Counted from the stretch's first letter, positions 16,119 through 60,484 are shown. The stretch is DNA of 64,000 nucleotides from Candidatus Oxydemutatoraceae bacterium (GCA_965219575.1 OZ244779.1:1409928-1473927), one strand, 5' to 3'. The notes: generated from the letters alone by a model not told the origin. Program-made: numbers and translations.

Positions 16119-16385
16119 CTGTTGAAAAAGTGCCGTTCTGCACGAACTCAACCGCTATGCGCTGCATAATTATCCAAACCACCTGTAGGGGCGGACTGGC
16201 ATGTCCGCCCTAGAGTGCCGTTCTGCACAGCCGTAACCGCTTGCGCCGTATGGTTTTGGTTTCCATAAATCGGGTGAATGAATGTATAAATCGTGCCGAC
16301 AAACGCGTCACGGGCGGACATGTCGTAGGGGCGGACTTACATGTCCGCCCGCCCCTACATTGTATGAAATACTTTTTCAACAGCC
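16119..16385. repeat. MITE-like element, family A, full copy
   Basis: Bounded by the inverted repeats CTGTTGAAAAAGT...ACTTTTTCAACAGCC. Contains the GTAGGGGCGGAC-n-GTCCGCCCCTAC palindrome twice. It starts 11 nt after the yejF stop. Confidence 0.8.
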
Positions 16386-16466
16386 TAGTCATATCTGCAA
16401 AAGTCTATTCATCAAGCCAATTTGAGACAACCACTATGACGATAAAACCATTTTTTCATCAGCCTC

Positions 16467-17219
16467 ATGCTTAACTTTAAGAAAAAACGTATCGAAAGAA
16501 CACCATCGCAAAACTCTTTATTATTGGACGAGTGGTATCAAAGCGATGTCAATAGAAAGCTATGGATGGAAACCGAACCGGCACTACAGCCTTGGTTAGA
16601 GAGAACGATGGGCTATTACGCAGCGCATATTGCATCCTTTCAAGTCGGTGACGAGTTATTATCGTGTAGTCGCGTGCGCACTAAGTGTATTGTCAATGCA
16701 ACTAGGTACTCCGACACCGGTATACTCGCCGATTTCACATCTCTACCGCTCGATACCGAAAGCATGGATTTGATCATCGCACACCATATATTTGAATTCA
16801 TCTCGCAGCCGCACGAGTTTTTGCGCGAGGTTGATAGAGTGCTAATCTCCGAAGGGTTACTTATAATAATCTGTTTTAATCCGATAAGTTATCAAGGTTT
16901 ATTCAAACTGTTTCAATTACACGGACGAGCCAATCCACCGTGGTGTGGCAACTTCTATACGCCTTTTCGAGTAAAAGACTGGCTCTCGGTGCTGGGCTTT
17001 AAGGTAAAAGAATTACGCTATTTTGCTCCCCCGCTGATCCGATACAAAAACCACCCCGGTTATGCAGGCAAAATCTCGCGAGGTTGCAAGCGTTTTATGA
17101 AATGGGGTAGCTCTTTTTATGCAATACTCGCAGTAAAACAAGTCTCGCGTTTGATACCGCTAGGTCCGGTATGGAAAGACCGAATAATAAAGCCCGAAGC
17201 ACCGCAACCGACCGCTTGA
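16467..17219 (+). CDS. Class I SAM-dependent methyltransferase (YafS-like)
   Basis: Methyltransferase-like core. Its position directly upstream of rnhA mirrors yafS in enterobacteria. Confidence 0.5.
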   Translation: MLNFKKKRIERTPSQNSLLLDEWYQSDVNRKLWMETEPALQPWLERTMGYYAAHIASFQVGDELLSCSRVRTKCIVNATRYSDTGILADFTSLPLDTESMDLIIAHHIFEFISQPHEFLREVDRVLISEGLLIIICFNPISYQGLFKLFQLHGRANPPWCGNFYTPFRVKDWLSVLGFKVKELRYFAPPLIRYKNHPGYAGKISRGCKRFMKWGSSFYAILAVKQVSRLIPLGPVWKDRIIKPEAPQPTA

Positions 17220-17229
17220 GGAAGCTGTC

Positions 17230-17685
17230 ATGCCGGACATGATGCCTATCTATGTCTATACCGACGGCGCATGTCGAGGCAACCCCGGGCCGGGCGGTTG
17301 GGCAGCGATATTGATCTACGGAACACATGAAAAAGTACTCTGCGGCGGAGAACATCACACCACGAATAACCGCATGGAACTCACCGCCGCAATACGAGGC
17401 CTCTCGGCAATCAAGCCGGAAAAACTCAAAAGTAAGAAACATATCGTCTATCTCATAACCGACTCGCTCTACCTCAAAAACGGCATAGAGATATGGATTG
17501 CCAACTGGAAGCAAAACAACTGGCGAACGATAAGCAAAAAGGTAGTCAAAAACCAAGACCTATGGAAAGAGCTAGACCACCTGAACACACTAATGCAAAT
17601 CAACTGGCAATGGGTCAGAGGCCACAGCGGCTATGCAGAGAACGAACGCGCCGACCAACTCGCAAAAGATAGCATCCCCTCGTAG
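17230..17685 (+). CDS. rnhA: Ribonuclease HI
   Basis: IYTDGACRGNPGPGGWAAIL...TNNRMELTAAI is the canonical RNase H catalytic motif set. Confidence 0.92.
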   Translation: MPDMMPIYVYTDGACRGNPGPGGWAAILIYGTHEKVLCGGEHHTTNNRMELTAAIRGLSAIKPEKLKSKKHIVYLITDSLYLKNGIEIWIANWKQNNWRTISKKVVKNQDLWKELDHLNTLMQINWQWVRGHSGYAENERADQLAKDSIPS

Positions 17686-17790
17686 AGCAACATTTCGTGT
17701 AGAGGCGTGGTCGCAGCATATCTGCACCAGTCAATTCCCATTATTGTAGAGGCAGCAGGCTTCACCTGACCGGGTGGTCGCTGCATGGGA

Positions 17791-17992
17791 CTGTTGAAAA
17801 AATACTGTTCTGCAAAACCGTAACCGCTTGCGCCGCATAATTATCCAACCCACCTGTAGGGGCGGACTAACATGTCCGCCCGTAACGCGTTGTGCCTACA
17901 CGATTTATACATTCATCCATCCAATTTATGGAAACCAAAACAAAATGGCGCAAGTGATTAGATTCGTACGATGCCGCACTTTTTCAACAGCC
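17791..17992. repeat. MITE-like element, family A, preceded by a family B hairpin repeat (17695..17790)
   Basis: Same terminal inverted repeats and CGGACTAACATGTCCGCC palindrome. Confidence 0.8.
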
Positions 17993-18152
17993 CGTAAGGG
18001 TCTGCACAGTTGCAACAAGTAGCGACTCAACCACCTCATATTACCCCAACATACCGTTTATCGGATATTTACTACTGTTCATCCATTTGTCTAAAAACAC
18101 CTCAAGTATTCGCTCAAACTACAGGTTTTAACTAAAACTTGCAGGAGATTTC

Positions 18153-19076
18153 ATGGCAAAAAAAACTCAATCTAAATACTTAGCACTGACAGAAGACATT
18201 TCCTTCAAGCGATACTTCTCAAGCAGTAAGCAATTACTATTCTCGCTACTTAAGAGCTTCCTGCCGATCTCCGATCGTGCCTCGGGTATGGTGATACTCA
18301 ACCCCGACATACTAGACACCGCATCCGCTACCACCAATCAACCCGGTCAATCGGACGATAAGCTACATCTGCAAGACAGTGCTATCCCACCGGACACACC
18401 GGATGGCAAACAAGTAGTGCTAGACCTCCATGTCGAATTAAATAGCGGTGAGCATGTGGACATAGAGATGCAAAGCCACCCGCATAAAGATTTCTTGTTT
18501 AGAATGTTAGCCTACTGGGTGCGGTTGCATAATCAATCCTTAAAGCGCGGACAGAAGACCAAAGAAAATAAACCGACCTACTCACTAATATTTACCAAGT
18601 TCAGCGTGCTTAGCAAAGCCGAGAGAGACTATATCAAAAAGGCGAACATCAATTTCGAAGGCTATCAGGATAGAGCACTTTACTGGGGGTTTAAGATGTT
18701 TTTCGTGGAATTGAATAGGTTCAATAAGAGCCACCTTGAACTAGTTGATATGGCAGACAGGTGGTGCTATATTATGAAGCATTCGGCGGACTTGACAGCC
18801 GAACAAGTAGCGTATTTATCACAACATGGAGAGACGAAGATGGCATTAGAACATTTAGAGGAAGTATCCAAAGAAAAGAGGGAGTATTGGAAGGCTGCAT
18901 CTCGAGAGAGACGCGAGTGGGAGCATGAGATGAGAAAGCAAGGACTAATAGAAGAAGGCATAGAAAAAGGACATCGAGAAATCGCTTTGAACATGTTGCA
19001 AAAGGGTTTAGAGGTCTCGTTGATTTCCGAAGTCACAGGTTTATCCGTTGCCGAGATTAAACAGCTAAAAAGATAG
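18153..19076 (+). CDS. Rpn-family recombination-promoting nuclease / putative transposase (PD-(D/E)XK, Transposase_31-like) with DUF4351-like C-terminus
   Basis: N-terminal YhgA/Rpn-like core (DLHVELNSGEHVDIEMQSH). The C-terminal tail ...EIALNMLQKGLEVSLISEVTGLSVAEIKQLK is shared with the truncated paralog at 20753. Confidence 0.6.
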   Translation: MAKKTQSKYLALTEDISFKRYFSSSKQLLFSLLKSFLPISDRASGMVILNPDILDTASATTNQPGQSDDKLHLQDSAIPPDTPDGKQVVLDLHVELNSGEHVDIEMQSHPHKDFLFRMLAYWVRLHNQSLKRGQKTKENKPTYSLIFTKFSVLSKAERDYIKKANINFEGYQDRALYWGFKMFFVELNRFNKSHLELVDMADRWCYIMKHSADLTAEQVAYLSQHGETKMALEHLEEVSKEKREYWKAASRERREWEHEMRKQGLIEEGIEKGHREIALNMLQKGLEVSLISEVTGLSVAEIKQLKR

Positions 19077-19162
19077 AACTGAACCACAAGTACGATACTG
19101 GTACATTCCTCTCCCGTAGAGGGGTGTCAGGCATAGCCTGACGGGGTGGTCGCTAAAGAGGG

Positions 19163-19206
19163 CTGTTGAAAAAGTATTTCATAAAATGTAGGGGCGGACT
19201 AGCATG
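19163..19206. repeat. Left part of a family A MITE interrupted by IS110
   Basis: CTGTTGAAAAAGTATTTCATAAAATGTAGGGGCGGACTAGCATG, then the sequence diverges. Confidence 0.75.
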
Positions 19207-20531
19207 ATGCCTTATTAAAAATCAAGTCATTTTATTCATTTTTTATCTCCGTTTTATATTTTTCCTGAGTATCGATTTAGGACGCAGATGCGCAACAATA
19301 ATTCGGGTCAAACGGCTTCCTGTATCTGAGTATCCCGTAAATAATACGTGCCAGCTTATGGGCGCAAGCAACAATAATCTGCTTTTTAGTTAACTCCGGA
19401 CGCCGCCGACTTAATTGGTCGGCAAAGGCACGGATGATTGGGTTATGAACCCGTGCCGAGAGTGCCGCCATAAACAGCAGGGTGCGCAGTTCGGCATCGC
19501 CCATTTTAGAGATATGCGCCTTCGCCTCGTAGTTGCCGGACTGCCGGCGCCTTGGGTTGAGACCGACATAGACTGCGAATTGCTCTGCGTTATCAAATGT
19601 CTTATCATTGAAAACAGCACACAGGGCAATCGCTGTCTGAGTGCCGATGCCGGTAATGGAACACAGCAACTGCTCAAGCTCTGCGAGTTGCTCGTCTTGA
19701 GCGATAATTTGCTCCATTTCGGCATCCTGCTTAGCAATCTGTTTGTCAAAGTATCTCAGGTTCTCAGCTGCTCGTTTTTTTTGCCTTGCATCGCATAAGG
19801 TTTTCATACAATTACTTAACCCGGTATGATCTTTGACTAATTGCCTGCGCACTTTTCGTGCATCTCTCAAGGCGAGTGCAGTCGGCGACGGCATTTGCCA
19901 ATCTTTACCGTCAACAGCGAATGCGAACAGTGCGATGAGCCGCGCATCATCGCGATCGGTTTTATTGTGCATACCAAGCGATTGGCGGAAGCTGGCAACC
20001 TGCGCCGGTTTGACAATCCTAATCGGATGTTGCGCCAGATAGCCGGCTTTGCACAGGGCGAACTCAAAACCGCCGGTGGCTTCAACACAGATGCGACAGT
20101 GCGGTGCGCAGTGTTTGCTAGCCCAAGCTAACAGCTGCTTAATGCCTTTAGCATCATTGCTAAATTGTGCCTCGGCAAAACTATTATCGGTGAATAATAG
20201 AGCGGCCTCTAAAGTGTCTTTAGAGACATCCACGCCGATTATGGCAGGGTGTTTGTTTTCCATAATAATATCCTCCATTATGGTTGTTCAGTGAATAAAA
20301 TACTCGGTAGCCAGTTCAGGAAAGTATGACTACGCCGCCCACACAGGTAAATACGAGATCTAAAGTCTCAAGCTGCCTTCCGAGCTCTATAGTCATAGCG
20401 CCGGAGGAGTGCTTTTCATGCTAACAGGCTTTAATGCCTCGTCCGTCCTGCGGCGTGTCTCCTCCGACTTCCTAGGTACTGCAACTACCTAAGCATTTAT
20501 CTTATATAAATAAGCTAGGGTTTAATATACC
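19207..20531 (-). mobile_element. IS110-family insertion sequence (~1.3 kb) inserted in a MITE palindrome
   Basis: Carries a single DEDD-transposase ORF. The flanks reconstitute an intact family A palindrome (…GGCGGACTAGCATG | IS | TCCGCCCGTAACGCG…). Boundaries are ±3 bp. No terminal inverted repeats, as expected for IS110. Confidence 0.7.
19277..20278 (-). CDS. IS110-family transposase (DEDD)
   Basis: N-terminal IIGVDVSKDTLEAALL (DEDD_Tnp_IS110) and a C-terminal Transposase_20-like domain, in 333 aa. Confidence 0.85.
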   Translation of the reverse strand: MEDIIMENKHPAIIGVDVSKDTLEAALLFTDNSFAEAQFSNDAKGIKQLLAWASKHCAPHCRICVEATGGFEFALCKAGYLAQHPIRIVKPAQVASFRQSLGMHNKTDRDDARLIALFAFAVDGKDWQMPSPTALALRDARKVRRQLVKDHTGLSNCMKTLCDARQKKRAAENLRYFDKQIAKQDAEMEQIIAQDEQLAELEQLLCSITGIGTQTAIALCAVFNDKTFDNAEQFAVYVGLNPRRRQSGNYEAKAHISKMGDAELRTLLFMAALSARVHNPIIRAFADQLSRRRPELTKKQIIVACAHKLARIIYGILRYRKPFDPNYCCASAS

Positions 20532-32287: not shown

Positions 32288-32508
32288 TATTTAAGTATTA
32301 CTGTGCCGAATGGCACGGCTGTTGCGTCCGTCATTATTCCTTTTCTTTGGAGGAGTGGCAGGCGCAGCCTGACAGGGTGGTTACAATACTACGCGCCACT
32401 CGATTTGTAGTTTTGCAAACCGAATGATTTATACTATCAAGCACATAGGATAGCTTTACATGCTTACCATAAACCACAACCGACAACGCAATTAAATTCA
32501 AGGAGGCT

Positions 32509-33673: not shown

Positions 33674-34590
33674 TGAATTTTCCCAGAACTTTGTATTACC
33701 GCAGGCGTGTGCTACTGGCAATTCTGGCTCGCGGGAAAGGTCGCACGGAGAAAATCCGCCTGCAAAAGTTACTCTTTCTATTTACCCAACATCAAGAGAA
33801 GCCGATTTATCATTTCTTACCGTATAAGTACGGGTGTTATTCATTTCAAGCTAACGAAGATGCTCGGATACTCGCCGATTATTATCGGTTGTTGGCAATA
33901 ACGAAAAACGACAAAGCATACATTGTAAATAGTAAGAAAATTAAAGGGATGATCAACTTGAAACCTGAGGATGAAGAGTGTCTAGACGCTATATTTGATG
34001 CGTATGGAAAACTTTCCAATGATGCCCTTATCTACGAGGTATATAGAAAGTATCCGTACTACGCAATCAATAGCGAGCTTCTGGACAAACCGAAATTTAA
34101 ACCGTTGCGCCGTTATATATCTAAAGAAAAACCACAGATCAAAAATAAACATTTAACGCTTTACACCATAGGTTACGAAGGAAAAAGCATAGAACAATAT
34201 CTGAGAGGTTTAATCGATAACGGCATCTCTGCACTGATAGATGTGAGGTATAATCCTTTCAGCATGAAAAAAGGCTTTTCCAAAAAACAACTACAAGATA
34301 TAACCGGCAGGTTCGGAATAGCTTATATCCATATCCCGGAATTAGGCATTAAGGGAAATTTGCGAAAGAATATAAAACCTCGCACCGAATATAATCAACT
34401 GTTCAATCAATACCGAAAAACCTTAAGCCAAACCGATAAAGAGCAAGCATTGCAGGATGTAGTGAAAATCATTCGGCAACACCGAAGAGTTGCTATCACT
34501 TGCTTTGAGCAAGATCACACATGCTGTCACCGCAATCATGTGGCAGAGGCAATAGCCGACAAACACAAAATAATCATTCGGCACTTGTAA
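33673..34590 (+). CDS. Panacea (DUF4065)-like N-terminal domain fused to a DUF488 C-terminal domain
   Basis: N-terminal half: KIRLQKLLFLFTQ...PIYHFLPYKYGCYSF resembles the Panacea/SocA-like antitoxin domain. C-terminal half: LYTIGYEGKSIEQYLRGLIDNGISALIDVRYNPFSMKKGF...IAYIHIPELGI...ITCFEQDHTCCHRNHVAEAI is the DUF488 (YeaO-like) signature. Confidence 0.55.
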   Translation: MNFPRTLYYRRRVLLAILARGKGRTEKIRLQKLLFLFTQHQEKPIYHFLPYKYGCYSFQANEDARILADYYRLLAITKNDKAYIVNSKKIKGMINLKPEDEECLDAIFDAYGKLSNDALIYEVYRKYPYYAINSELLDKPKFKPLRRYISKEKPQIKNKHLTLYTIGYEGKSIEQYLRGLIDNGISALIDVRYNPFSMKKGFSKKQLQDITGRFGIAYIHIPELGIKGNLRKNIKPRTEYNQLFNQYRKTLSQTDKEQALQDVVKIIRQHRRVAITCFEQDHTCCHRNHVAEAIADKHKIIIRHL

Positions 34591-34595
34591 GATAT

Positions 34596-35085
34596 GAGGT
34601 TTTTGAAAAAGTATGGGGTGTTGAAAAAATGAGGCTGCTGAAAAAGTATTTCATACAATGTAGGGGCGGACTTGCATGTCCGCCCGTAACGCGTTGGCCG
34701 GCACGATTTATACATTCATTCAACCGATTTATGGAAACCAAAACCAAATGGCGTAAGCGGTTGAGTTTGTACAGAACGGTACTTAAGGGCAGACACACAG
34801 GTCTGCCCCTACGACTTTGTGGTTATCATAATTATGTGGCGCAAGCGGTTGGATTTATGCAGTGCCAATACTTTTTCAACAGTCACACGATACAACCAGC
34901 CCATGGAAAGGCTTTACATTTTGTACTATGTACTAAGATTTCGCACAATGTTACGCCGATTGACCTACCGGCTCAATCGGCGGCTCTATTCTGCCCCTAC
35001 GGCTCGGCGGTTTGCGTAAATCCACGGCACAGGCGGTTCTGTTCGTGCAAAACATTATTTTTCTAACAGCTCCAACATTGATACA
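34596..35085. repeat. Repeat block: family A MITE (degenerate left end) plus a family C repeat
   Basis: …GTAGGGGCGGACTTGCATGTCCGCCCGTAACGCG… then GCACAATGTTACGCCGATTGACCTACCGGCTCAATCGGCGG (family C). Fills the gap to dnaQ. Confidence 0.75.
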
Positions 35086-35097
35086 CAGGATGCGCTA

Positions 35098-35781: not shown

Positions 35782-35783
35782 TC

Positions 35784-36949: not shown

Positions 36950-37039
36950 AATAAAAGCCTCCGATAGTTTAATTATGCAAATTATACCAAAATATGTACA
37001 ATGCTTCTATAAGCAAATCCAATTATATAGTACTTAATC

Positions 37040-44600: not shown

Positions 44601-47600
44601 TCGGTAATCAACCGTTTTCCGTTTTGCGAGAGAATTATAGTATAGGTATTCTGAATCGGAGCGAGGTTCAATTAAGACCTTTTGCCGTCGGTGGTGATGC
44701 CGAGATTAAAATCATAAGTGACGGCGATAACCAAGATTATTTTTCCGGCAAATCCAGCGGTCAGCCTAGCAACCCGATTCCATTAAGTCTAGATATCGCA
44801 ACGACTGTATCCGTTGTCGTGACCGACGGCGATATAAATACCACTTACACGCTGGCCATGAGCAGATACGACATAGAGACCGAAAGCACGGTCGTAGATG
44901 AAGGAGACGAAATCACCTTAAACACCGGTGCGATAGGCGATAGTCGTAACTGGTCGTTTATGCCGCCGGACTCGGTTGACATTCTATCGGGGCAGGGCAC
45001 CCCTACTTTGAGGGTGAGGATACCCGATACCTTTGTGCCGGGAGGTATGGAGACTACCATGGCCACCCTCGTATTTGAAGTAGATATAGTTGACGGGGCA
45101 ACAACCTATACACCGAGAGAAACACTGATAGTCAATAAGATAAATAACGGGATGCCTCCCGATATCGGTTTGGAAATAGGCTCGACGACCCTGAGTATCG
45201 TTCTCGGCGAAGGTACCGATTCGGACGGCGAAGGTGAGTTTATGTACACATGGGAAAAGGTATCTGTTGAAAATGGTAGAAAAGAGCGGAATGAGGTTTC
45301 TACTTCACCTGAATATAGATTGCCCGACACCGACAACGGAAGTACCCGCTATTTCGTGAATGTAATCCACATCGACGGTCAAGGCTTTGTAACAGACTAC
45401 GCAACCCGAGAGCCATCTATTTCGGAGCCGATTAGGCGAATAGATATAGACATAGACGATGACGACAATGGCTTGATAGATATCTACTACTTGGACGACT
45501 TGGACGAAATACGCGAACATTTGACCGAAATGCCGGCAACTTGCGGTCAAAACAACGATCAACCTTGTGAAGGTTATGAATTGCAAAGAAGCTTGAACTT
45601 TCGTTCCGGTGGCTCTTATATCGGAGATGTGAATCAGGCATGGATATCTACATTTACATCATCACCTCCAGGTTGGCAACCCATAGGGAGCATTGAAACC
45701 CCTTTCAATACCGTTTTTACGGCAGCTACCGATAATCTATTCATCGATCGCTTGTATATCAATAGACAAGAGGAGGACAATATCGGTTTGTTCGGTGTGA
45801 TCGGTCCCCGAGCCCAAATTTTGGATATTCAGGTACGGAATCCAAACATTAGAGGGCGGTATGCGGTCGGCGGTTTAGTCGGCGTGACGAGTAGGTTAAC
45901 CGATAGCGAAGGTTCGGTTACCGAGAGTTCTCTTATTGCCAACAGCTCCGTAGTTTTTACTCAATTGACTGGTACTCAACTAAGAGCGACTCGCGCATGG
46001 CTCGGTGGACTGGTCGGTTCTAATTACGGTTCAATCGTCAATAGCTATACCCAAGTCAGGCTAAACGGGGATTTTGCAGTGGGTGGTTTGGCAGGTTACA
46101 GCTTCGGTCCGATCAGTGATAGCTACGCACTCAGCTTCTATAGCATACCCGCTACTAGCGGAATTAACGAAGGCAATGATATCATAGAAGCCGGAAATGC
46201 GGTCGGTGGCTTGGTCGGTTATAACCATAACGAGAGCCCATTCAAAGGAGGGGGTTCCATTACCAATAGTTATGCCATCAATAGTGTACTGGGTGATTTC
46301 GATGTCGGCGGCTTGGTCGGCTATAACGATGCCGGCACTATCACGAACAGCTATGCGCTCGGTCATGTGGTCGGTGGCACGAATGTCGGCGGCTTGGTCG
46401 GCTACAATAGCAACGGAACGATTGTCGGCTATGCCGGTAATATCGTAACAGGCGGAAATAATGTCGGCGATTTGGTATCCCTCGAGTCCGGCGGTACGGT
46501 CACCGCACTGCTTACTACGCCGACCCTGACATACACAAGGAATTTTGACGGCAACGGCTATTCAAGTTGTGCCGTTGCCGACGGACAAACCGATTATCGA
46601 GTCAAATTACCGGCTTGCGACACACCGCTTCCGGAGCAAGATTCAAGAATCGGCAGAGGTACTCCGGCATTGAGCGGTGTGACTTTATCGGTCGGTACAT
46701 TGGAACCTGAGTTTGACCCGGCTAGAAGCGCATTCTCTAGTTTTAATGGTTATGAGATTTTTGATATCCCCGAGGGCACGACGAAAATAACGGTGACGGC
46801 TACAACGAATAGTCCAAATACTGATTTGGTTTTTGCCGCGGGTTCTTCTACCACTAGAGAAAATAATTCGCGTACAATTTCGCGTACAATTCCGTTAGAT
46901 ATTGAAGAGGCATTTATTTCTGCAGAGCGAGGTACAGCAAGCGATTACGCCATAGTAATGCCTGACCAGCCTGATTTAAGCGGCACCCCGCGAATGCCAT
47001 GCCGCGCAGATACCGCAGATAGAGATGGCGACGGCTTGATAGAAATTTGCGATCTGGAAGGCTTGTATGCGATGCGCTATCGATTGGATGCCGATGCCAT
47101 GCCGAAGACTTGTGGAGAGAGTAACGATAGTGCTTGCATCGGATATGAGTTGGTCAGAGATTTAGACTTTAACGAGAACGAAAGCTATCGCAATGCATCC
47201 GAGAATAAACCGATATGGACGACCGGTAGAGGTTGGCGACCGATAGGAAATCCCAATAATCCTTTCAATGTGGAATTTAGCGCAACCACCGGCCACAGCA
47301 TCGCTAATCTGATGATTAATAGAGACTTTATTAGAAATTATAGCGGATTATTCGGCTATACCGGACGCAATGCTCGTATCGTCAATATCGAACTATCGGA
47401 TGCAAATGTTCGCGGTAGATACTTAACCGGTGGCTTGGTCGGTCGCAACGAAGGCACGATTATCAATAGCCGTGTAACCAGCGCGAGCACGGTTATCGTA
47501 AGGAATGCATGGGGTGGCGGTCTGGTAGGTGATAACGCCGGAATCATCAACGATAGCTACACGGATGGCGATGTGACAGGCAGAGATCAGATCGGTGGCT

Positions 47601-48544
47601 TGGCCGGTATTAACAGCGGGCAGATTATCAATAGCGTAGCCAAGAGCAATGTGGCAGGGGCTACCTTCGCCGGTGGCTTGGTCGGTGTCAATGCCGGCAA
47701 CATTAATAATAGTTATGCAAGCGGTACGGCGGGAGAGAACTTTTATTATGCCGGCGGTTTGGTCGGTTTGAATGTCGGTAGCATCGCAGACACATACTCA
47801 ATCGGCAATGTGAACGGAAGGGAACGAGTAGGCGGTTTGGTCGGTGATAACAGAAACTTGATAGCCTCGAGTTATGCTGCCGTCGGCAATGTGGTAGGAA
47901 CCAGACTGGTCGGTGGCTTGGTCGGCATCAACAGTGGCTCGATTATCGACAGCTACGGCGATCAAAGTACTTATGGTTTAGTCGGTGAAAATTTCCCTGT
48001 CGGAACGATAAGGAACAGTCAAATTTTAAGCGATATGAACTTTCAATCGCAATTCTCCATTCCCGGATGGCGTGCTACCAGCTGGGATTTCGGCACCAAC
48101 AGGCAATACCCGGCACTCAAATATCTAAGAAGCGAAACCGACCCGATTGACTGCGAACAATGTGGCATGTTACTGCAGGGTCAAGCGATGAGACCTGATT
48201 TTTCATTGAGTGCGCCGGCGGAATCGGAAACTCTAATTGAAACGCCGAGCGGCTATACGCTGAACATCAACTTCAACGCAAGGCAAGCCACCCTGATTCC
48301 CGATGCGGATGTTGACAATGTTGTTATTCGTTATAGAGTAGATAACGGGGTGGACCAGACAGCTACGAACAGACAACCCTTTACCGTAGCACTGCCTTCT
48401 AGTGCTAGAACAATCACAATCACATTAGACTTAGGTGGTGACGAAGACTTCCAAGTTGGCGAAATGATAGAATATAGGGTTGATGTCCGCAGAGTTATCT
48501 ATACCCAAATCAGATTATTCCCCGAAGGCCTACTAAATCCATAA
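38645..48544 (+). CDS. Giant secreted repetitive surface protein (3299 aa) with GLUG-like GGLVG repeats and 4-5 tandem ~650-aa modules
   Basis: Signal peptide MKLKPIFVAQFILLAVLPCQSALG. Recurring module: LLNPNLQLSD..TRTLTV.IP.DF segment, acidic DxDxDGLIEIYYLEDLDAIRY (dockerin/EF-hand-like) motif, long arrays of NSYA.G.V.G...VGGLVG (GLUG-type), and a closing WDFGTSEQYPILKY...QCGTFLPDQ. Confidence 0.8.
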   Translation: MKLKPIFVAQFILLAVLPCQSALGQVPSENPGITLQKGITIEGSANEGEELTLSLPDDAIAGGSGNSENYSYRWEYRPSDRSQLLNPNLQLSDPNTRTLTVRIPTDFIARDYNQSDVIFTVTVGEDGSTASTESIVTIIKRNNFVPTLDVNLKLNSNISGTTASITAVVDNISDSDGDGEFTYSWQSLALGDTQWRGVKMETTTRTLSAYTVPEGTTPTTRYRVEISYTDAQGHAVTEQFGTYRTDVDIDDDGLIEIYYLEDLDAIRYQVNGSGYQPVPSDDIDLNNSGCNEDGDGTCNGYEIARHLDFGNDAHYQDLSNKATWTEGAGWSPIDSLATALEGNGNTISGLRIVRNQGNQGLFAQLGGSSGIIRNLGLLKVNINIMSSGIAGGFAGRLGGRIIRNSYVKGTIVGNQEIGGFAGDGLGQIINSYANVNIEGRFSGGLYGEGDAGITSSYVTGSVTGPSVGAIVSESNSFIANSYAANNLGNIKDNNQTGISNSYARVPDRHNELKEPTAPGTSDPELYIGWRTNRWDFGTSEQFPILKYVEDCSNDPQTQRTDPPQCGTFLPDQNDGLRDLEIISEVIKLDKVFASEITNYDVSFNDDTPNLTLRLKAYESDSQISVRRHGDSTDYFAGMRDTPDVGNDISLTGTEQTTVTITVREVFPATETEYVLTLINETLIVSGEIGITGDVMITENVISTTEGRSFTLEAPQVSGGIDMPDYEWTVTPENTSQLLNPNLQLSDTTTRTLTVTIPNDFIGRASTSSNVRFKLTVNNDVSGSSRNIVVRIDKTNNDSSELNPTWVEDGISLDAVIDIEDIEDLDGNPGENDISYQWQRKAINNDVWMNIPDDATSETYTIPQLEYPIAFNYRVGVRYTDRQGYLSDIAYSDPTPADYRPDIDTDDDGLIEVYYLEDLDAIRYQLDGSGYRTSTQATVIKAGCGYNDNGSMVCRGYELIRDLDFGVDNSYSSTANRVIWQPNDGKSNEGWMPIGSNSQTTVSAPMIFEGNGYTISNLYQNTATDSGLFGNIENVRERPLAIYNIGLLDIDIQTRGGDNGGLAAACRNCRIANSYVTGTLSSEGTVDTLGGLVGRATSDSAGATEYRNIYARVDLTGNAVHSGHLLGLATVRIAESYARGYRQETYEGAIVGSLSIRNDNEFGFLVNSYATGSDITDIIIENTLLFMDSTATQTVSALTSPTTNEGIYEQWNQGENIWDFGTSEQYPILRYNIGNNFRRVYDYDLCSQGLRMKSTDQPQCGTFLPDQGIGLRDLNILEPTITRTDNIFVSDRTEYTLWIRENEAQIQLELNGYDFRGIITIDGVGAAIGTTMTTIALPNDISVRNIVVADAASTEYKLTIIKSADIAGTGVITVDPMPAEDGTWDEGSRIELTSDIVGGSYLWTQPEESALEIVEQNDAMITVRAPGDFVAPDAMTRNTTLTLTVSDPLEQDGRVISRVLTINKIDNGPAEIDFVGQFGNRQLTVIVGNDPDGDVAEYRYRWQSQAPGSNLWATVASITTALNKVDYQIPADTTTATRYRVEVQYTDAQGYSTDEVAGNYLYRAGDNDDNDNGFIDIYTLEDLAATTSDGRYELRGNLDFNDPLSYADTRNMDDWSANEDRSNRGWEPIPPVNLEFVGYIFNGNGHTISNLYINRAVNRNSENQRIALFREIGPSSTIRNIGLINVDIRGYFFAGGLVGISDGSVISSYVGGSVKISSNDRAAGLVGENTNTGIIDNSYVIATSGTIVGLGNTGGLVGFNSGTIRNSGANVAVQGTDGVGGLIGRNRAVGDTARTSRVHNSFAQGSVTGNQNVGGLIGLIQPMSTVQNSYASGDVTGSSNLGGLIGSSTVPALSIENNYTISKVIPNGDGRIGGLLGNTGSPAASYWNSDVYTEDDRRPTDDDATSKTTVELQSPIDATDIYRQWSTDNWDFGDEMTYPMLRYDPTSCNLDSDTARCGLLPNQQYETGLGALFLLSNGEVLNPDLRLGNQPFSVLRENYSIGILNRSEVQLRPFAVGGDAEIKIISDGDNQDYFSGKSSGQPSNPIPLSLDIATTVSVVVTDGDINTTYTLAMSRYDIETESTVVDEGDEITLNTGAIGDSRNWSFMPPDSVDILSGQGTPTLRVRIPDTFVPGGMETTMATLVFEVDIVDGATTYTPRETLIVNKINNGMPPDIGLEIGSTTLSIVLGEGTDSDGEGEFMYTWEKVSVENGRKERNEVSTSPEYRLPDTDNGSTRYFVNVIHIDGQGFVTDYATREPSISEPIRRIDIDIDDDDNGLIDIYYLDDLDEIREHLTEMPATCGQNNDQPCEGYELQRSLNFRSGGSYIGDVNQAWISTFTSSPPGWQPIGSIETPFNTVFTAATDNLFIDRLYINRQEEDNIGLFGVIGPRAQILDIQVRNPNIRGRYAVGGLVGVTSRLTDSEGSVTESSLIANSSVVFTQLTGTQLRATRAWLGGLVGSNYGSIVNSYTQVRLNGDFAVGGLAGYSFGPISDSYALSFYSIPATSGINEGNDIIEAGNAVGGLVGYNHNESPFKGGGSITNSYAINSVLGDFDVGGLVGYNDAGTITNSYALGHVVGGTNVGGLVGYNSNGTIVGYAGNIVTGGNNVGDLVSLESGGTVTALLTTPTLTYTRNFDGNGYSSCAVADGQTDYRVKLPACDTPLPEQDSRIGRGTPALSGVTLSVGTLEPEFDPARSAFSSFNGYEIFDIPEGTTKITVTATTNSPNTDLVFAAGSSTTRENNSRTISRTIPLDIEEAFISAERGTASDYAIVMPDQPDLSGTPRMPCRADTADRDGDGLIEICDLEGLYAMRYRLDADAMPKTCGESNDSACIGYELVRDLDFNENESYRNASENKPIWTTGRGWRPIGNPNNPFNVEFSATTGHSIANLMINRDFIRNYSGLFGYTGRNARIVNIELSDANVRGRYLTGGLVGRNEGTIINSRVTSASTVIVRNAWGGGLVGDNAGIINDSYTDGDVTGRDQIGGLAGINSGQIINSVAKSNVAGATFAGGLVGVNAGNINNSYASGTAGENFYYAGGLVGLNVGSIADTYSIGNVNGRERVGGLVGDNRNLIASSYAAVGNVVGTRLVGGLVGINSGSIIDSYGDQSTYGLVGENFPVGTIRNSQILSDMNFQSQFSIPGWRATSWDFGTNRQYPALKYLRSETDPIDCEQCGMLLQGQAMRPDFSLSAPAESETLIETPSGYTLNINFNARQATLIPDADVDNVVIRYRVDNGVDQTATNRQPFTVALPSSARTITITLDLGGDEDFQVGEMIEYRVDVRRVIYTQIRLFPEGLLNP

Positions 48545-48554
48545 AGACAAACCA

Positions 48555-48898
48555 TTCCCCTCCTTCGGAGGGGTGGCAGGCGTTAGCCTGACGGGGTGGT
48601 CGCTTCGTGGGACTGTTGAAAAAATACCGTTTGGCACGGATAATATGTTTATCCACAAAATTTATGTTTACCTACCGTAGGGGCGGACTAACATGTCCGC
48701 CCTAAAGTGCCGTTCTGCACAGCCGCAACCGCTTGCGCCAACAAATAATGGTTTCCATAATATTAATGGGTAAACGCGTTAATCGTGCAAACATGATACG
48801 TTTCGGGCGGACATGTTAGTCCGCCCCTACGGGTGGTTTGTAAATATTCACGGCGCAAGCGGTTGCAATTATGCAAAAACAGTACTTTTTCAACAGCC
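48555..48898. repeat. Family B hairpin repeat plus a full family A MITE (two palindromes)
   Basis: CATTCCCCTCCTTCGGAGGGGTGGCAGGCGTTAGCCTGACGGGGTGGTCGC, then CTGTTGAAAAAATACC…ACTTTTTCAACAGCC. Confidence 0.8.
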
Positions 48899-48941
48899 CC
48901 AACGGTTCTGCACAAGTCAACCACACAAACTACTTTGACAA

Positions 48942-50962: not shown

Positions 50963-51201
50963 ACTAGTCTATCCCTCTTCTATGGAGGGGTGGCTAACAT
51001 GTCTACCTAAAGTATTGCGTCTGTACAATTCCATTTATTGAGCCAATTAATGACCACCCGCCGTAGGGGCGGACTAGCATGTCCGCCCGTAACGCGTTGC
51101 GCCTGCACGATTTATACATTCATCCATCCAATTTATGGAAACCATTATTTGTTGGCGCAGGGCGGTTGGTGTTGTGCGATGTCCGCACTCTTTCAACAGC
51201 C
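50963..51201. repeat. Family B-like hairpin plus a partial family A MITE inserted between the MotA-like gene and the vWA genes
   Basis: …CCGTAGGGGCGGACTAGCATGTCCGCCCGTAACGCGTTGCGCCTGCACGATTTATACATTCATCC…CTTTCAACAGCC. The left terminal inverted repeat is missing. Confidence 0.7.
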
Positions 51202-51230
51202 TCATCGTATCTGCTCCAGTTCTGCACCAA

Positions 51231-52153: not shown

Positions 52154-52278
52154 AATTGCAGTATATCAAATATTTATGAATGTATGATTTTTCAATAACC
52201 CTATATTATAATATCCACATTTTGCCAAACCTATTAAAAGAATTCTCGGATAGGAAACCGAATAAGAGAGGAATCATT

Positions 52279-53694
52279 ATGAAAAAGAAATATATTACAA
52301 AAAAAGAATACAAAGCGATCGAAATTCAAAGCCAAATCGGCATCGACAAAATAGAACAAAAAGACTACGACGGTGCAATTATAGCCTTTGATAAAGTAAT
52401 CGAGTTAGAACCGGATAATGTTTTTGCCTACAATATCAGAGGAATCGCTAAATTAGAATCGGGTGATTATGCAGGCGCAATTGCCGATTACGACCATACA
52501 CTTAAGTTAGAACCGAATAATGCGTCCGCTCACGGTGCCAAAGGAATTGCTAAGATGAGATCGGGTGATTATGCAGGTGCGCTTGCCGATCTTGATTGCG
52601 TACTTGAGTTAGAACCGAATAATAAGAACGTTCGTGAAACTAGGGAAATTGTTAAAGCACTTTTGGATAACTCCGAGGAGGCGATTGCCGATTTTGACCG
52701 TGCGCTTGAGTTAGATTCGAATAATCAAGCGGCTTTTAGTGCCAGAGGAATTGCTAAAATAGCATCGGGCGACCTTGCAGGTGCTGTTAGCGATTTTGAT
52801 CGCACACTTGAGTTAGAACCGAATAATAGTGCTATCTACAATGCCAGAGGACTTGCTAAGCATGACTTAGGCGATTATGCCGGTGCGATCGCCGATTTTG
52901 ACCGTGCGCTTGAGTTAGATCCGAATAATTCCATCGCCTACAGTGTTAGAGGAGCTGCTAAAGCTAATTTGCAACATTACGAGGAAGCGATTGCCGATTA
53001 CGATCGCGCGCTCGAGTTAGATCCGAATAATCTCACTGCCTACAGTGAGAGAGGAAATGCTAAGATTTACTTAGGCGACTATGCAGGTACGATTGCCGAT
53101 TACGATCGCGCGCTTGAATTAGGGCTGGATCATCCGGCTGCCTACAATAGCCTTGGAATTGCTAAGAGGGAATTAGGTGATTACGCGGGCGCGATTGCCG
53201 ATTACGATCGCGCGATCGAGATGGATCCGGATAGAGCGGATAGCTATTATAACCGGGGTAATGCTAAAGCCGATTTGGAAAACTATAAGGAGGCGATTGC
53301 CGATTACGACCGCGTGCTTGAGTTGGTGCCGAGTGATGTGGATGCTTATTATCATCGAGGAATTGCTAAGGATAAATCAGGCGATTATGCAGGTGCGATT
53401 GCCGATTGCAACCGTGCACTTGAGTTGGCACCGGATAATGTGGATATTTATTTTTACCGAGGTGCCGTGAAGGATAAATTAGGCGATCATATAGGTGCGA
53501 TTGCCGACTACGATCGCGTACTTGAGATTGACCCGGATGCTGCGCGTGCTTACAATAACCGAGGATATGCCAAGGCAAACTTAGGGGACAACGAGGGGGC
53601 GATGGACGACTACAACCGTGCAATCGAATTAGAGCCGAGTCATCATTTCGCGATTGCAAATCGAGAATTACTTAAAGCAAAACTGGGTCGTTGA
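52279..53694 (+). CDS. Tetratricopeptide-repeat protein (paralog a)
   Basis: About 12 TPR units (DYxGAIADYDRALELEPNN). Start placed at MKKKYITKK, preceded by AGAGAGGAATCATT. Confidence 0.7.
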   Translation: MKKKYITKKEYKAIEIQSQIGIDKIEQKDYDGAIIAFDKVIELEPDNVFAYNIRGIAKLESGDYAGAIADYDHTLKLEPNNASAHGAKGIAKMRSGDYAGALADLDCVLELEPNNKNVRETREIVKALLDNSEEAIADFDRALELDSNNQAAFSARGIAKIASGDLAGAVSDFDRTLELEPNNSAIYNARGLAKHDLGDYAGAIADFDRALELDPNNSIAYSVRGAAKANLQHYEEAIADYDRALELDPNNLTAYSERGNAKIYLGDYAGTIADYDRALELGLDHPAAYNSLGIAKRELGDYAGAIADYDRAIEMDPDRADSYYNRGNAKADLENYKEAIADYDRVLELVPSDVDAYYHRGIAKDKSGDYAGAIADCNRALELAPDNVDIYFYRGAVKDKLGDHIGAIADYDRVLEIDPDAARAYNNRGYAKANLGDNEGAMDDYNRAIELEPSHHFAIANRELLKAKLGR

Positions 53695-53737
53695 AAAAAA
53701 CTTCTCAGGCAGTAAACCAAATAAGAGAGAAATCATT

Positions 53738-54445
53738 ATGAAAAGCAAAGATATGACAAAAAAAGAACACGAAGAACTCAAGACTCAAAGCAAAATTGCG
53801 CTTGCCAAGTTAAGCCAAAAAGACTACGAAGGCGCAATTATAGCCTTTGACAGAGTAATCGAGTTAGACCCGAACAATCCTTATGCCTATGGTGTCAGAG
53901 CAATCGCGAAAAAAGAATTAAAAGATTATGCGGGTGTGATTACCGATTGCAATCGAGCACTCGAGTTAGAACCTAACGATGCGAGTATCTACAATAATCG
54001 AGCAATTGCTAAGAGTGAATCAGAGGATTATGCAGGTGCGATTGCCGATTATGACCGCGCACTTGAATTAGAACCTAGCAATGCAGATGTTTATAATAAT
54101 CGAGGAAATGCTAAGACTGAATCGGGCGATTATGCCGGTGCGATTGCCGATTACGGCCGCGCACTTGAGATTTCACCGAATGATAATGATGCGGATGTCT
54201 ATTATAATCGAGGAAATGCTAAAGCTGAATCAGGTGATTATGCCGGTGCGATTGCCGATTTCAACCTTGGCCTTGAGATCAATCCGAACGATGTATATGG
54301 CTATTTCAGTCGAGGAAATGCCAAGAAAAACTTAGAGGATAACGAGGGGGCGATTGCCGATTATGATCGCGCACTTGAATTAGACCCGAATAATGCCATT
54401 GTGCGTAACAAACGAAGTTTAGTCAAAGAACAATTAGGTCATTAA
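53738..54445 (+). CDS. Tetratricopeptide-repeat protein (paralog b)
   Basis: Same repeat consensus. Start at MKSKDMTKK. The leader AAACCAAATAAGAGAGAAATCATTATG nearly duplicates the leader of paralog a. Confidence 0.7.
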   Translation: MKSKDMTKKEHEELKTQSKIALAKLSQKDYEGAIIAFDRVIELDPNNPYAYGVRAIAKKELKDYAGVITDCNRALELEPNDASIYNNRAIAKSESEDYAGAIADYDRALELEPSNADVYNNRGNAKTESGDYAGAIADYGRALEISPNDNDADVYYNRGNAKAESGDYAGAIADFNLGLEINPNDVYGYFSRGNAKKNLEDNEGAIADYDRALELDPNNAIVRNKRSLVKEQLGH

Positions 54446-54504
54446 GATAAAACCACCAATTGAGCCGGTAGGTCAATCGGCTTAACTTGTGCAGAACCTT
54501 GAGG

Positions 54505-54650
54505 CTGTTGAAAAAGTATTTCATACAATGTAGGGGCGGACTGGCATGTCCGCCCATAACGCGTTATGCCTGCACGATTTATACATTCATTCACCCAATT
54601 TATGGAAACCAAAACCGAATGGCGCAAGCGGTTACGGTTATGCGGTTCAA
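54505..54650. repeat. Family A MITE, right end truncated, preceded by a family C fragment (54455..54490)
   Basis: GGCTGTTGAAAAAGTATTTCATACAATGTAGGGGCGGACTGGCATGTCCGCCCATAACGCG…. Confidence 0.7.
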
Positions 54651-58136: not shown

Positions 58137-58167
58137 AGGCTCAAAATCGTTCTACGAGTCGGTATCC

Positions 58168-59433
58168 TCAGAGTTGTATGTCGGGAGTTTGTTCCTCGGC
58201 GTATATTCGCCTCAATGCGGCGCGCCACTGATTGAATTGCGCAGTTGCATCCCCGGTGAGTTCTATGGTTTTCTCTTCGAATTCGATGACTTGAGGAGCG
58301 ACTTCTACATCTATCGATTTTCCCAACTCCGTCAAGGTTTCATAATGAAATTTCGATTCTTTAAAGTTTTGTGCGCTACTCGACAGCAACACGGCACCGG
58401 TGGTGAGTGCGCCGACCGTGGCAACCGTTCCGGCAGTGTTATTATTGTTGGATGCGGCAACTGCGCCTAAACCGATGGCAAGGATGCCCGCCAAAGCCTG
58501 CCATGTTGCCTTGCTTTTAGCCTCACGGTTCGCTTTCGACGCCGAAAAAGCGGCCTCTTGCCAGGTTTTATAAGACGCTTCTACCTTTTGGTTGAAATCG
58601 TAATAGTATTGCTGCATCTTATCGATAAAGAGTTGGTCTTCCACTCTATATTGATAAATACGCTTAAACATCGGGTCGTTGTCGGCAGGTGCTTGCACCA
58701 GTTCTACGCGGCTACCTCTGAATTTTAGAAATTGCTCGAAACTCTCGTCGGACATTGAATAGGCAAAGCGCACTTCGGTTAGCCGATTGAGTTCTTCTAA
58801 ATAGCTTCGGTCTTTGGTGCGCAGCTGTTTGACTATATCGGCTGCCGCTTGTTCGAATACCGGATCGTAAGGATTTTTACCCTGATTACGCACACTGGTG
58901 TAAAAATACTCGTCCACTCGATGTTTGTAGTTTTTGTTGAGCCAGCTTCTGCCGTCTATACCGATGACCTTGATGTTGATTGCAATATCCTCACCGCTTG
59001 ATTTGTTGATTGTGCCGATTACATATAGGTCTCCGCTAACCTTTTGATCGGGCGTAACCCGAACCGCCCCGAGTTGTTCGGTATCCTCCAGAGCCTTTTT
59101 CATCTTCAGAGCAAAGTCTATAGCTTCTATTCGACGTAGTTCCGGCCAAATCCCTTTTTTCTCCCAAGTATCGGAATCTTCCGGTATATTCGGATTAAAA
59201 ACCGGGACGATGACTTCCAGTTCTCTTTGTATTTCACGCACCAATAGCGATTGTTTTTCCGATGCGGTCATTATTTCCGTGGAGCTTTCGGGTCCCACTA
59301 TATTTGCAGAGTTTCCCGATAGTGATGACCCCGTAGTCGCATAACATCCACTTAGTATGAGTGTTGCACTCAGTAATAGATAAAATACCACCGGCGAGGT
59401 GGTATGGCTATTTTTGTTGTTGCGATAACACAT
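58168..59433 (-). CDS. Lipoprotein of unknown function
   Basis: Lipobox LILSGC. C-terminal hydrophobic/Gly-Ala-rich segment. No family recognised. Confidence 0.5.
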   Translation of the reverse strand: MCYRNNKNSHTTSPVVFYLLLSATLILSGCYATTGSSLSGNSANIVGPESSTEIMTASEKQSLLVREIQRELEVIVPVFNPNIPEDSDTWEKKGIWPELRRIEAIDFALKMKKALEDTEQLGAVRVTPDQKVSGDLYVIGTINKSSGEDIAINIKVIGIDGRSWLNKNYKHRVDEYFYTSVRNQGKNPYDPVFEQAAADIVKQLRTKDRSYLEELNRLTEVRFAYSMSDESFEQFLKFRGSRVELVQAPADNDPMFKRIYQYRVEDQLFIDKMQQYYYDFNQKVEASYKTWQEAAFSASKANREAKSKATWQALAGILAIGLGAVAASNNNNTAGTVATVGALTTGAVLLSSSAQNFKESKFHYETLTELGKSIDVEVAPQVIEFEEKTIELTGDATAQFNQWRAALRRIYAEEQTPDIQL

Positions 59434-59453
59434 TTTGGGTCTCCTATTTAAGT

Positions 59454-60212
59454 CTATTTTGTCGGAATACCTTTATAGCGTCGGTATTCGTTCCATAGTT
59501 TTTCCTGTTTTTGAGGGTCGGGTTCTGCAAGCGCAGCTTCTCTAATCTGTTTAGCAATTATATCATCATTGTCTGCCGGCGGTATGTCTTCGGGTAATTT
59601 ACCGTTGTTTAGTGCCCTTTTGTCATTCGTGCCGGTGAACGGAGGAGGGTCTTCGGATGAATCGCTTATCGCACCTTCGCTATCGGTTTGTCGAGTTGTC
59701 GGTGGTTCGGTACCCGATAATTCGCCGCTCGGTGTCGCAATTTCCGGTGTTCGTGTAGTGGTTTGTTCGTCGAAATCGTCGGAGACTTCGCTGCCGGAAA
59801 GCTCACTGCTCGGTGTTGCGGTTTGTTGGTTTTGCGAGTCGCCTTGCTCGGATTCGGCATTGTCCGCTTGTTCTGCATTGCTATCGGCACCTGCATTTGC
59901 ATCGTCGGAACTATTAGCATTGCCGGCATTACCACTATCTTGCTTTTGCACATCGCTGATCGTTTGCTTACAATCTTGCACCTGAGCGAGTGCATCCTTT
60001 AGAGCTTGATCCATCAGTTGTATGCGCTCTTCTCTGGTAAGAAGCATCATATTATCGAAGTCAGGCATCACGATAGGACAATCGCCTTCGTCTGCGGCAT
60101 CGTTTGCATAGAGCGCGGTCATACATAAAGCCAGCACCCCGGCAAGACATGCTCTGATAATTTTATTCCCCACTTGTGGATTTGTGCCGGCATGTTGCGT
60201 TCGGGCGGTCAT
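59454..60212 (-). CDS. Secreted acidic low-complexity protein
   Basis: The track ORF extends to 60539 only because it reads through the upstream MITE. The first Met outside the repeat is at 60212 (MTARTQ…). A signal-peptide-like region is followed by a D/S/E/A/N-rich tract. Confidence 0.4.
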   Translation of the reverse strand: MTARTQHAGTNPQVGNKIIRACLAGVLALCMTALYANDAADEGDCPIVMPDFDNMMLLTREERIQLMDQALKDALAQVQDCKQTISDVQKQDSGNAGNANSSDDANAGADSNAEQADNAESEQGDSQNQQTATPSSELSGSEVSDDFDEQTTTRTPEIATPSGELSGTEPPTTRQTDSEGAISDSSEDPPPFTGTNDKRALNNGKLPEDIPPADNDDIIAKQIREAALAEPDPQKQEKLWNEYRRYKGIPTK

Positions 60213-60215
60213 GTA

Positions 60216-60484
60216 GGGCTGTTGAAAAAGTGCGAACATCGCACAAATCCAACCGCTTTGCGCCGCATAATTATCCAACCCACCTGTAGGGGTGGGCGGA
60301 CATGTTAGTCCGCCCCTACTATATCTGCCCTTAAGTGCCGTTCTGCACAGCCGTAACCGCTTGCGGCGTATGGTTTTGGTTTCCATAAATCGGGTGAATG
60401 AATGTATAAATCGTGCCGGCCAACGCGTTACGGGCGGACATGCAAGTCCGCCCCTACATTGTATGAAATACTTTTTCAACAGCC
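60216..60484. repeat. MITE-like element, family A, full copy (two palindromes)
   Basis: It exactly fills the 277-bp gap between the aldolase stop and the next gene start. The terminal inverted repeats are intact. Confidence 0.8.

Follow-up and report, generated by a model that had tools for sequence, protein, structure and literature searches.

The region described here is a stretch of 64,000 nt (hereafter the window; G+C content 46.1%) from a Candidatus Oxydemutatoraceae bacterium, OZ244779.1:1409928-1473927, in which many of the gaps between genes are occupied by copies of one small, non-coding repeat, termed family A. Ten copies plus fragments were identified by motif searches, region reading and BLAST mapping of six sequence modules. 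The elements range from 164 to 390 bp in size and together make up 2,786 bp, or 4.35% of the window. The end motif of the family, GGCTGTTGAAAAAGT, matches the window 22 times with up to two mismatches (0.12 matches expected by chance), and the arm of its palindrome, CGTAGGGGCGGAC, matches 20 times (0.76 expected). One of the end-motif matches, at 28529, is probably unrelated, since it falls within a long open reading frame (ORF; 27315-28628), has two mismatches and has no other family-A motif near it. The copies listed in a preliminary description of this DNA are all present where it put them, at 16117, 17789, 19161/20532 (split), 34633, 35812, 38296, 48611, ~51049, 54503 and 60217, with a fragment at 8614. 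Every copy sits between ORFs, as had also been said, and family A contains no real ORFs; the only ones over it are artefacts that span repeats.

The elements are built from a few modules. The terminal inverted repeat (TIR) is 17 bp long, (G/A)GGGCTGTTGAAAAAGT, and this 17-nt core reaches ~46 nt in many copies. Paired inverted ends were found in eight copies in the window and in seven from a sister genome described below, and these, together with the end-motif matches, bear out the proposal of a non-autonomous mobile repeat family with common termini. That every copy is bounded by inverted repeats is true of most, but copy 8 has no left end, copy 9 has no right end, and the left end of copy 5 is degenerate. 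Module T is a 15-nt end with ~31 nt more, (G/A)CCGTTCTGCAC..AACCGCTTGCGCC, and module S is an alternative end made from the same 15 nt followed by ATTTCATACAAT. Between the ends lie a short spacer (h), a hairpin headed by GTAG, and a 65-nt AT-rich core (C). The core and the segment GCGCAAGCGGTT are both conserved among copies; the latter, which had been called variable, is part of the extended ~46-nt inverted repeat. Three arrangements recur: an S form of ~164 bp (S, hairpin, C, T'; locus L002 of the sister genome), a short form of ~205 bp (T, h, hairpin, C, T'; represented by copies 2 and 6, which face opposite ways) and a long form of ~270 bp (copies 1, 3, 4 and 10).

The hairpin has the layout GTAG-G-GGGCGGAC-N6-GTCCGCCC, with an 8-bp stem (GGGCGGAC/GTCCGCCC) and a 6-nt loop, which often reads TAACAT|G. 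In most copies GTAG is found on one side only. The 12-bp stem given earlier is therefore a composite of both orientations, because GTAG/CTAC normally flanks just one arm, and the real stem is 8 bp. The window and the loci fetched from other genomes, 161 kb in all, contain 29 intact hairpins, every one of them inside a TIR-bounded family-A element. The single variable position in the stem is always compensated in these hairpins (21 G:C, 8 A:T, no mismatches). All of the A:T stems occur in one module context and thus probably go back to a single inherited double change. A hairpin outside this set, split by an IS110-family element at locus L005 of the sister genome, has A with C at that position.

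Copy 1 (16115-16466) is a long form (16115-16387) with a 79-bp extension, closed off by a third, degenerate end (16450-16466). Copy 1 takes up all of the space between the stop codon of a yejF-like ABC ATPase gene (16108) and the start of a methyltransferase gene (16467). Copy 2 (17787-17994, plus strand) is a short form in which the two 46-nt ends enclose the h spacer, the GTAG hairpin and the AT-rich core. Copy 3 (19159-20737) is a long form split by an insertion sequence (IS) of the IS110 family, leaving MITE parts (miniature inverted-repeat transposable element) at 19159-19206 and 20532-20737. Copy 4 (34596-35072) starts with three tandem end remnants (34598-34647), continues as a long form to 34886 and ends in a degenerate partial copy (34887-35072) that carries a P2 palindrome (see below); the remnants are progressively degenerate 15-nt ends, GGTTTTTGAAAAAGT, GGGTGTTGAAAAAAT and GGCTGCTGAAAAAGT. 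Copy 5 (35810-36200), besides its degenerate left end, includes an 88-bp direct repeat with 100% identity (36010-36097 and 36102-36189). This repeat consists of hairpin, spacer and T end, has a start-to-start spacing of 92 bp and suggests that local duplication or slippage took place here very recently.

Copy 6 (38294-38503, minus strand) is a short form in the orientation opposite to copy 2, between a GSDH-like gene and an ORF of 3,299 aa. Copy 7 (48609-48900) contains a variant core and a pair of hairpins inverted relative to each other; it lies within a repeat of a second family, B (left part 48553-48608, right part TCTGCACAAGT). Copy 8 (51020-51203, plus strand) retains hairpin, core and right end; with no recognisable left end, its left boundary is approximate. 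Copy 9 (54501-54646, plus strand) has an S-type end, hairpin and core, and its right end is cut off at the stop codon (54647) of a gene with an FGE-sulfatase domain. Copy 10 (60215-60486) has the long form and shares 93% identity with copy 1 over 122 nt; ATGT is perfectly duplicated on its two sides (60211-60214 and 60487-60490). Its insertion site is the loop of a degenerate hairpin separate from it, GGGCGGTC-ATGT-TAGTCCGCGC, and the ATGT rebuilds the loop of this solitary hairpin, GGTC-ATGT-TAGTCC. A solo end fragment (8612-8628, plus strand) adjoins the P1 hairpin of a family-B repeat.

Family A is not confined to this region. The core motif was searched for in one genome from each of 185,579 species and was found in only one, OZ244052.1, a 2.22-Mb metagenome-assembled genome (MAG) named 'uncultured candidatus Porisulfidus sp.', where it is present at 10 separate loci. 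In a third assembly, a 2.88-Mb contig (L012; ERZ25067984) contains family-A-like and family-B repeats with 76-92% identity, of which the family-A copies have 76-85%. This is a single dispersed family, as had been proposed, and an origin by local duplication was rejected since the copies are scattered in other genomes. Porisulfidus is placed in the literature among SUP05-related sulfur oxidisers and sponge-associated metagenomes. Exact-protein look-ups of the HpcH aldolase and the RNase H encoded in the window, which might have led to further strains, found neither on record. The strict core motif is present eight times in the 64-kb window (as read from the copies) and 10 times in the whole 2.22-Mb MAG, a density that means either a large expansion in the window's genome or that this region is a hot spot. 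The TPR-rich, FGE-sulfatase and VWA genes of the window would fit a sponge symbiont.

One locus of the MAG (L001) is orthologous to positions 15725-21793 of the window, with 94-96% identity, and allows the two to be compared with and without the repeats. Copy 2 is kept in L001 (6089-6292). Copy 1 and copy 3, the latter including the IS110-family element inside it, are missing: the MAG joins 16109 directly to 16467 and 19156 directly to 20738, and the missing blocks extend exactly from inverted repeat to inverted repeat. At the site of copy 1 the MAG reads TGA-CG-ATGTTTAAC (ABC ATPase stop, 2 nt, methyltransferase start) and the window TGA-CC-ATAT[GGATCTG...CAGCCTC]ATGCTTAAC. At the site of copy 3 the MAG has GCTAAGGGTATGCAC and the window GCTAAAG[AGGGCTG...CAGCCCT]TAAGGGTCTGCAC. 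At each site the window has an imperfect duplication of a 4-mer that occurs once in the MAG (ATAT/ATGC versus ATGT, and AAAG/TAAG versus TAAG).

The insertion point of copy 1 is the ATGT that holds the methyltransferase start codon, a role that has passed in the window to ATGC, the duplicate on the right. The ABC ATPase stop and the methyltransferase start are 2 nt apart in the MAG (L001 7600-7625) and 358 nt apart in the window (16108-16470), so that a polar or uncoupling effect of copy 1 on the gene pair is possible.

A candidate partner for these elements is present in the MAG. Locus L010 (449-1905) holds an element of 1,457 bp, bounded on either side by GGCTGTTGAAAAAG(T), whose two overlapping ORFs of 279 and 193 aa look like one frameshifted gene. 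Compared with NF033551, the NCBIfam model named 'IS1182 family transposase', the ORFs score 224.5 bits (model positions 3-161) and 111.9 bits (329-486), each half alone falling below the cutoff of 270 bits; they carry the Pfam domains DUF772 and DDE_Tnp_1_6. A protein search led to an intact transposase of 461 aa (P0008; precomputed domains PF01609, PF13751 and PF05598), which is 72% identical to the L010 product over the N-terminal 279 aa. It is encoded by an intact IS of 1,472 bp (L011 2319-3790; ENA ERZ26051807) whose two ends both carry GGGGCTGTTGAAAAAGT and which is flanked on each side by ATGT. The IS1182-type elements of L010 and L011 and the MITEs have the same 17 nt at their ends (GGGGCTGTTGAAAAAGTATTTGATGTAGG in the IS, GGGGCTGTTGAAAAAGTATTTCATACAATGTAGG in the MITE). 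The MITE S end and the transposase-proximal end of the IS agree over ~24 nt, that is, the 17 nt and then six of seven more. In L012 a 278-aa N-terminal transposase ORF, with 78% identity, follows the same end and is inserted in a hairpin loop.

ISPse1, a member of the IS1182 family that was captured by experiment in Paracoccus, makes a 4-bp target duplication and is bounded by 16-bp inverted repeats (PMC3281130). When the ends are defined as 2 nt plus GGCTG..., perfect 4-bp duplications flank two MITE copies, copy 10 (ATGT) and the element at L002 498-661 (ACAT). The case for a 4-bp duplication rests on the intact IS, these two perfect copies and the two empty sites.

The ends themselves are not peculiar to family A. 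Scanning metagenomes with GGCTGTTGAAAAAGTATT, the end plus 3 nt, gave matches at at least 120 loci, a number that is uninformative about the true range of family A. Among the matches listed, most are single matches and belong to unrelated MITEs or IS1182 elements, and none shows a family-A core or hairpin context. They include 12 unrelated MITEs of 94-156 bp with the end (CA)GGCTGTTGAAAAAGT, which mostly takes the form CAGGCTGTTGAAAAAGT; the majority have 4-bp duplications of TTAG, CTAG or TTAA (L015, L016, L026, L048, L055, L086, L098, L102, L122, L123, L124 and L130). Five fetched loci, again among the matches listed, encode IS1182-type transposases 24-38% identical to P0008, and in all three of these for which the TIR position is listed the transposase adjoins the end. 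The occurrence of the same end beside transposases this divergent, and on unrelated MITEs, makes it a widespread terminus of an IS1182 clade; family A, a lineage-specific MITE family, is one of its users.

Family B provides a view of what family A inserts into. A family-B repeat consists of a P1 or P2 hairpin, AGCCTGACGGGGTGGTCGC and then ..TCTGCACAAGT; more fully, the hairpin ATTCCCCTCCTTCGGAGGGGTGG is followed by CAGGCG.AGCCTGACGGGGTGGTCGC and ..TCTGCACAAGT. It is found in the window at 8565-8592, 17764-17781, 19100-19153, 32367-32384, 48555-48603 and 62007-62151 (two copies). Family A and the IS1182 element are found repeatedly at one spot within family B, and since uninterrupted family-B sites exist (62007-62041 in the window; 3899 and 4941 in L001), family A is the insertion and B the recipient. 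P2 is a third small palindromic module, GCCGATTGACCTACTGGTTCAATCGGCGG, present at 8496-8524, 21742-21770, 34955-34983 and 54453-54481 in the window and at ~7700-7750 in L005. There, a unit of ~48 nt with P2 lies inside the loop of a family-A hairpin, and this P2 unit may itself be a very small mobile element.

Taken together, these sequence comparisons make it very probable that family A consists of MITEs derived from an IS1182-family element and moved in trans by its DDE transposase. Several points weigh against this. Over 15 complete copies, with all offsets and lengths considered, no target duplication recurs consistently (mean match 0.42-0.44 at best); most copies have none, those flanked by family B show none, and the frameshifted IS of L010 also lacks a clean one. 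The family-B-flanked copies may have spread as composites or by recombination, or may simply be old. No partner transposase is encoded within the window. Two genomes were compared at the polymorphic sites, so that insertion and precise loss are not strictly separable at either of them.

In the mechanism proposed, the IS1182-family transposase would bind the common ends, cut out or copy the DNA between two ends and insert it with a 4-bp staggered cut. Any pair of ends would suffice, and so composites and nested copies would move too, giving rise to the modular mosaic of short, S and long forms. Because the loop TAACAT|G holds the preferred 4-mer, the elements would tend to land in one another, in solitary hairpins and at one spot of family B. 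An unrelated IS110-family element uses the same hairpin loop as its target. The MITE is most likely selfish DNA with incidental effects, such as the separation of a gene pair by copy 1, and family A, which belongs to a sponge-associated SUP05-like lineage, appears to have been active not long ago, at least in part, in the genome of the window.

A GTAG (or similar) tetranucleotide next to a GC-rich palindrome is the layout of the repetitive extragenic palindromic (REP) sequences. Family A might accordingly be read as REPs or REPINs, with the hairpins spread by a REP-associated tyrosine transposase (RAYT) of the Y1/HUH type and the surrounding sequence acting as a linker like that of bacterial interspersed mosaic elements (BIMEs). 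The hairpin, GTAG and G before an 8-bp GC stem and a 6-nt loop, would fit, as would the strictly intergenic placement, the two inverted hairpins found in some copies (copy 7) and the use as a target by an IS110-family element, since such elements also insert into the repeated palindromes of E. coli and Pseudomonas (PMC1525189, PMC12288879). However, with 29 of 29 hairpins in the 161 kb enclosed by TIRs, there is neither a free REP nor a simple doublet, and the pure REP or BIME interpretation raised in the preliminary description is not supported. The limits of the polymorphic blocks are inverted repeats and not hairpins, and 4-bp duplications are unexpected from an HUH mechanism. A scan of the 161 kb in six frames for HUH/Tyr motifs, which was crude, found no RAYT-like ORF. 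On all these points together, the REP explanation is very improbable.

It is very improbable that family A is a structured element selected for a host function, whether as terminator, mRNA stabiliser, small RNA or protein-binding site, and no longer mobile. Two whole elements have strong predicted folding (z-scores of -5.7 and -7.5), the variable stem position is compensated throughout the 29 hairpins, and the copies are strictly intergenic, all of which would suit such a function. However, the folding comes largely from the inverted repeats, which make the terminal stem in the minimum free energy structures, and strength of this kind is expected from such repeats. The A:T stems, all in one module context, probably reflect the one inherited change noted above. 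The hairpins are followed by GTAACG or CTACGG and not by a T-run, and a terminator scan of 34000-39000 flags none; for lack of a T-tract, the terminator role that had been suggested is unsupported. No Rfam match was obtained at the gathering threshold over the whole window or at E<=1 over 16.0-20.8 kb. The copies also occur in both orientations and with variable module orders, and two of them are missing in a close relative. MITEs mobilised by an IS1182-family transposase remain the preferred explanation.

The guest within copy 3 is an IS110-family element of 1,325 bp (19207-20531, minus strand). Its recombinase gene (19277-20278, minus strand) encodes a DEDD protein of 333 aa with PF01548 and PF02371, which scores 223 bits against NF033542 (cutoff 140). 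A 5' non-coding end of 268 nt (20264-20531, minus strand) has loops like those of a bridge RNA. A second copy of the element, 80% identical, splits a different family-A copy in the MAG (L005 6248-7578). Both have gone into the same position in the hairpin loop, ...CATG-ATGCC...ATA(C/T)C-TGTCCGCCC, with the dinucleotide TG (CA in the orientation of the IS) at both junctions in the window and in L005; the hairpin targeted in the window is ACGGGCGGACATGCTAGTCC.

Read in the orientation of the IS, the 268-nt end contains two loops enclosed by stems. Loop 1, CAGGACGGACG-(AGGC/GCCT stem)-GUUAGCAUG, carries the left target, GGGCGGACA, in sense and the right target, CATGCTAG, in antisense. Loop 2, GGAAGGCAGC-(stem)-UUUACCUG, holds the sense of the right end of the IS with the core, AAGGCATCA, and the antisense of the core with the left end of the IS, CAGGTA. 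The corresponding guides would be GGACGGACG for the left target (GGGCGGACA), UUAGCAUG for the right target (CATGCTAG), AAGGCAGC for the left donor (AAGGCATCA) and UACCUG for the right donor (CAGGTA). The guides differ between the two copies along with what they match. The right-target guide is UAGCAUG in the window, where the loop is CATGCTA, and UGGUAUG in L005, where it is CATATCA, a difference of two compensatory changes and one wobble. For the right donor, the guide is UACCUG in the window, where the IS starts with GGTA, and CAUCUG in L005, where it starts with GATA. In the bridge RNA of IS621 the loops have left-sense and right-antisense guides that include the core (PMC11208160), and the loops found here follow that arrangement. 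The 5' end thus appears to encode a putative, bridge-RNA-like guide; against this count the number of IS copies in which the sequence matches are seen, which is two, and the Rfam searches, which gave no match here either.

The earlier suggestion that the IS110-family element targets family A is upheld by its position in the same loop of two MITE copies in two genomes. IS110 elements do not have inverted repeats of the kind seen on the MITEs, and an element that lies in the hairpin loop, with guides matching the hairpin, targets the MITE and does not mobilise it. The other part of the suggestion, that the MITEs are moved by the IS110-family recombinase found inside one of them, can draw on the physical association of the two in two genomes but is hardly credible, as the IS lies in the hairpin loop with its 2-nt core on both sides like an inserted guest, its guide loops correspond to the hairpin as target and to the ends of the IS itself as donor but not to the MITE ends, and the MITE ends match IS1182-family elements exactly.

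Beyond the derivation from an IS1182-family element, a more ambitious idea is possible, although we think it less likely than not: the MITE may be a self-propagating landing pad, whose loop supplies both the 4-mer used by the IS1182-type transposase, hence the nested mosaics, and a programmed target for an IS110 with a bridge RNA, the guide having been re-tuned to CATGCTA or CATATCA, and there may in addition have been a recent burst in the window's lineage. If so, this would be a natural system in which to watch bridge-RNA retargeting and MITE expansion in the small genome of a sponge symbiont. As matters stand, family A is an ordinary kind of element in an unusually well documented case, with no new mechanism. 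A full-text literature search on the repeat sequences yielded nothing relevant, only the papers that place 'Porisulfidus'; the kind of element is known, while family A and its three-way relationship appear to be undescribed.

That relationship, read from sequence, ties together an IS1182-family IS as the likely source of transposase, MITEs with a REP-like hairpin and an IS110-family element with matching bridge-RNA-like guides. It offers a convenient natural example of guide-target co-variation and shows how nested insertions can build mosaic intergenic repeats. There is also a practical side for annotation, as about 4% of the window is MITE sequence that yields spurious ORFs, and masking it would improve gene calls in these symbiont genomes. 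Family A splits at least one tightly packed gene pair.

Some other features of the window are themselves repetitive. The ORFs at 18153-19076 and 20753-21631 are paralogues on either side of copy 3, embedded among repeats, with DNA segments that are 82-85% identical. The former matches the Rpn / PD-(D/E)XK 'putative transposase' family (PF12784, TIGR01784), and the latter has only a weak Yae1_N match. Two TPR-repeat genes, at 21884-22966 and 52180-54445, are made from 102-bp tandem units that are 60-75% identical, and the unit is common to both loci although they are 30 kb apart. Positions 38645-48544 are a single ORF of 3,299 aa with internal repeats and family-A copies on both sides.

Several known groups of bacterial repeats resemble family A in part. 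The Correia elements of Neisseria, the RUP and BOX elements of Streptococcus pneumoniae and the ERIC sequences are likewise abundant, structured intergenic repeats of 100-300 bp, and the modular build of family A recalls BOX. Correia elements make a TA duplication. No similarity in sequence or ends is known between any of these and family A, and none of them is known to have IS1182-type ends.

REPs, BIMEs and REPINs share with family A the GC-rich palindrome headed by GTAG, the mosaics between genes and the role of favoured target for IS110-family elements. They differ in that the family-A hairpin never occurs outside its TIR unit, that the whole MITE is the unit of gain and loss, that the youngest copies have duplications, and that no RAYT was seen in the crude scan of 161 kb.

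The guest element is close to IS621, ISPpu9 and ISPpu10 in its DEDD and Transposase_20 domains, its lack of inverted repeats, the 2-nt core at both junctions, the 5' non-coding target and donor loops with left sense and right antisense, and its insertion into a repeated palindrome. Its target is a hairpin inside a MITE, whereas theirs is a free REP; its core is CA and theirs CT; and its function is putative, read from sequence.

The closest relatives in kind are the bacterial MITEs derived from insertion sequences, in this case of the IS1182 family, whose DDE transposases fall in the IS5/IS1182 superfamily. Like them, family A is small, non-coding, dispersed, intergenic and polymorphic for insertion, with 17-bp ends identical to those of an IS1182-family element and, in its best-preserved copies, a 4-bp duplication as in ISPse1 and the intact IS of L011. 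Unlike them, it is modular to an unusual degree, comprising nested composites as well as short, S and long forms, and it carries a REP-like hairpin, while most of its copies have lost, or never had, a recognisable duplication. The 4-mer it targets is ATGT/ACAT; TTAG, CTAG or TTAA takes that place in the metagenomic MITEs that share its ends, among the matches listed.

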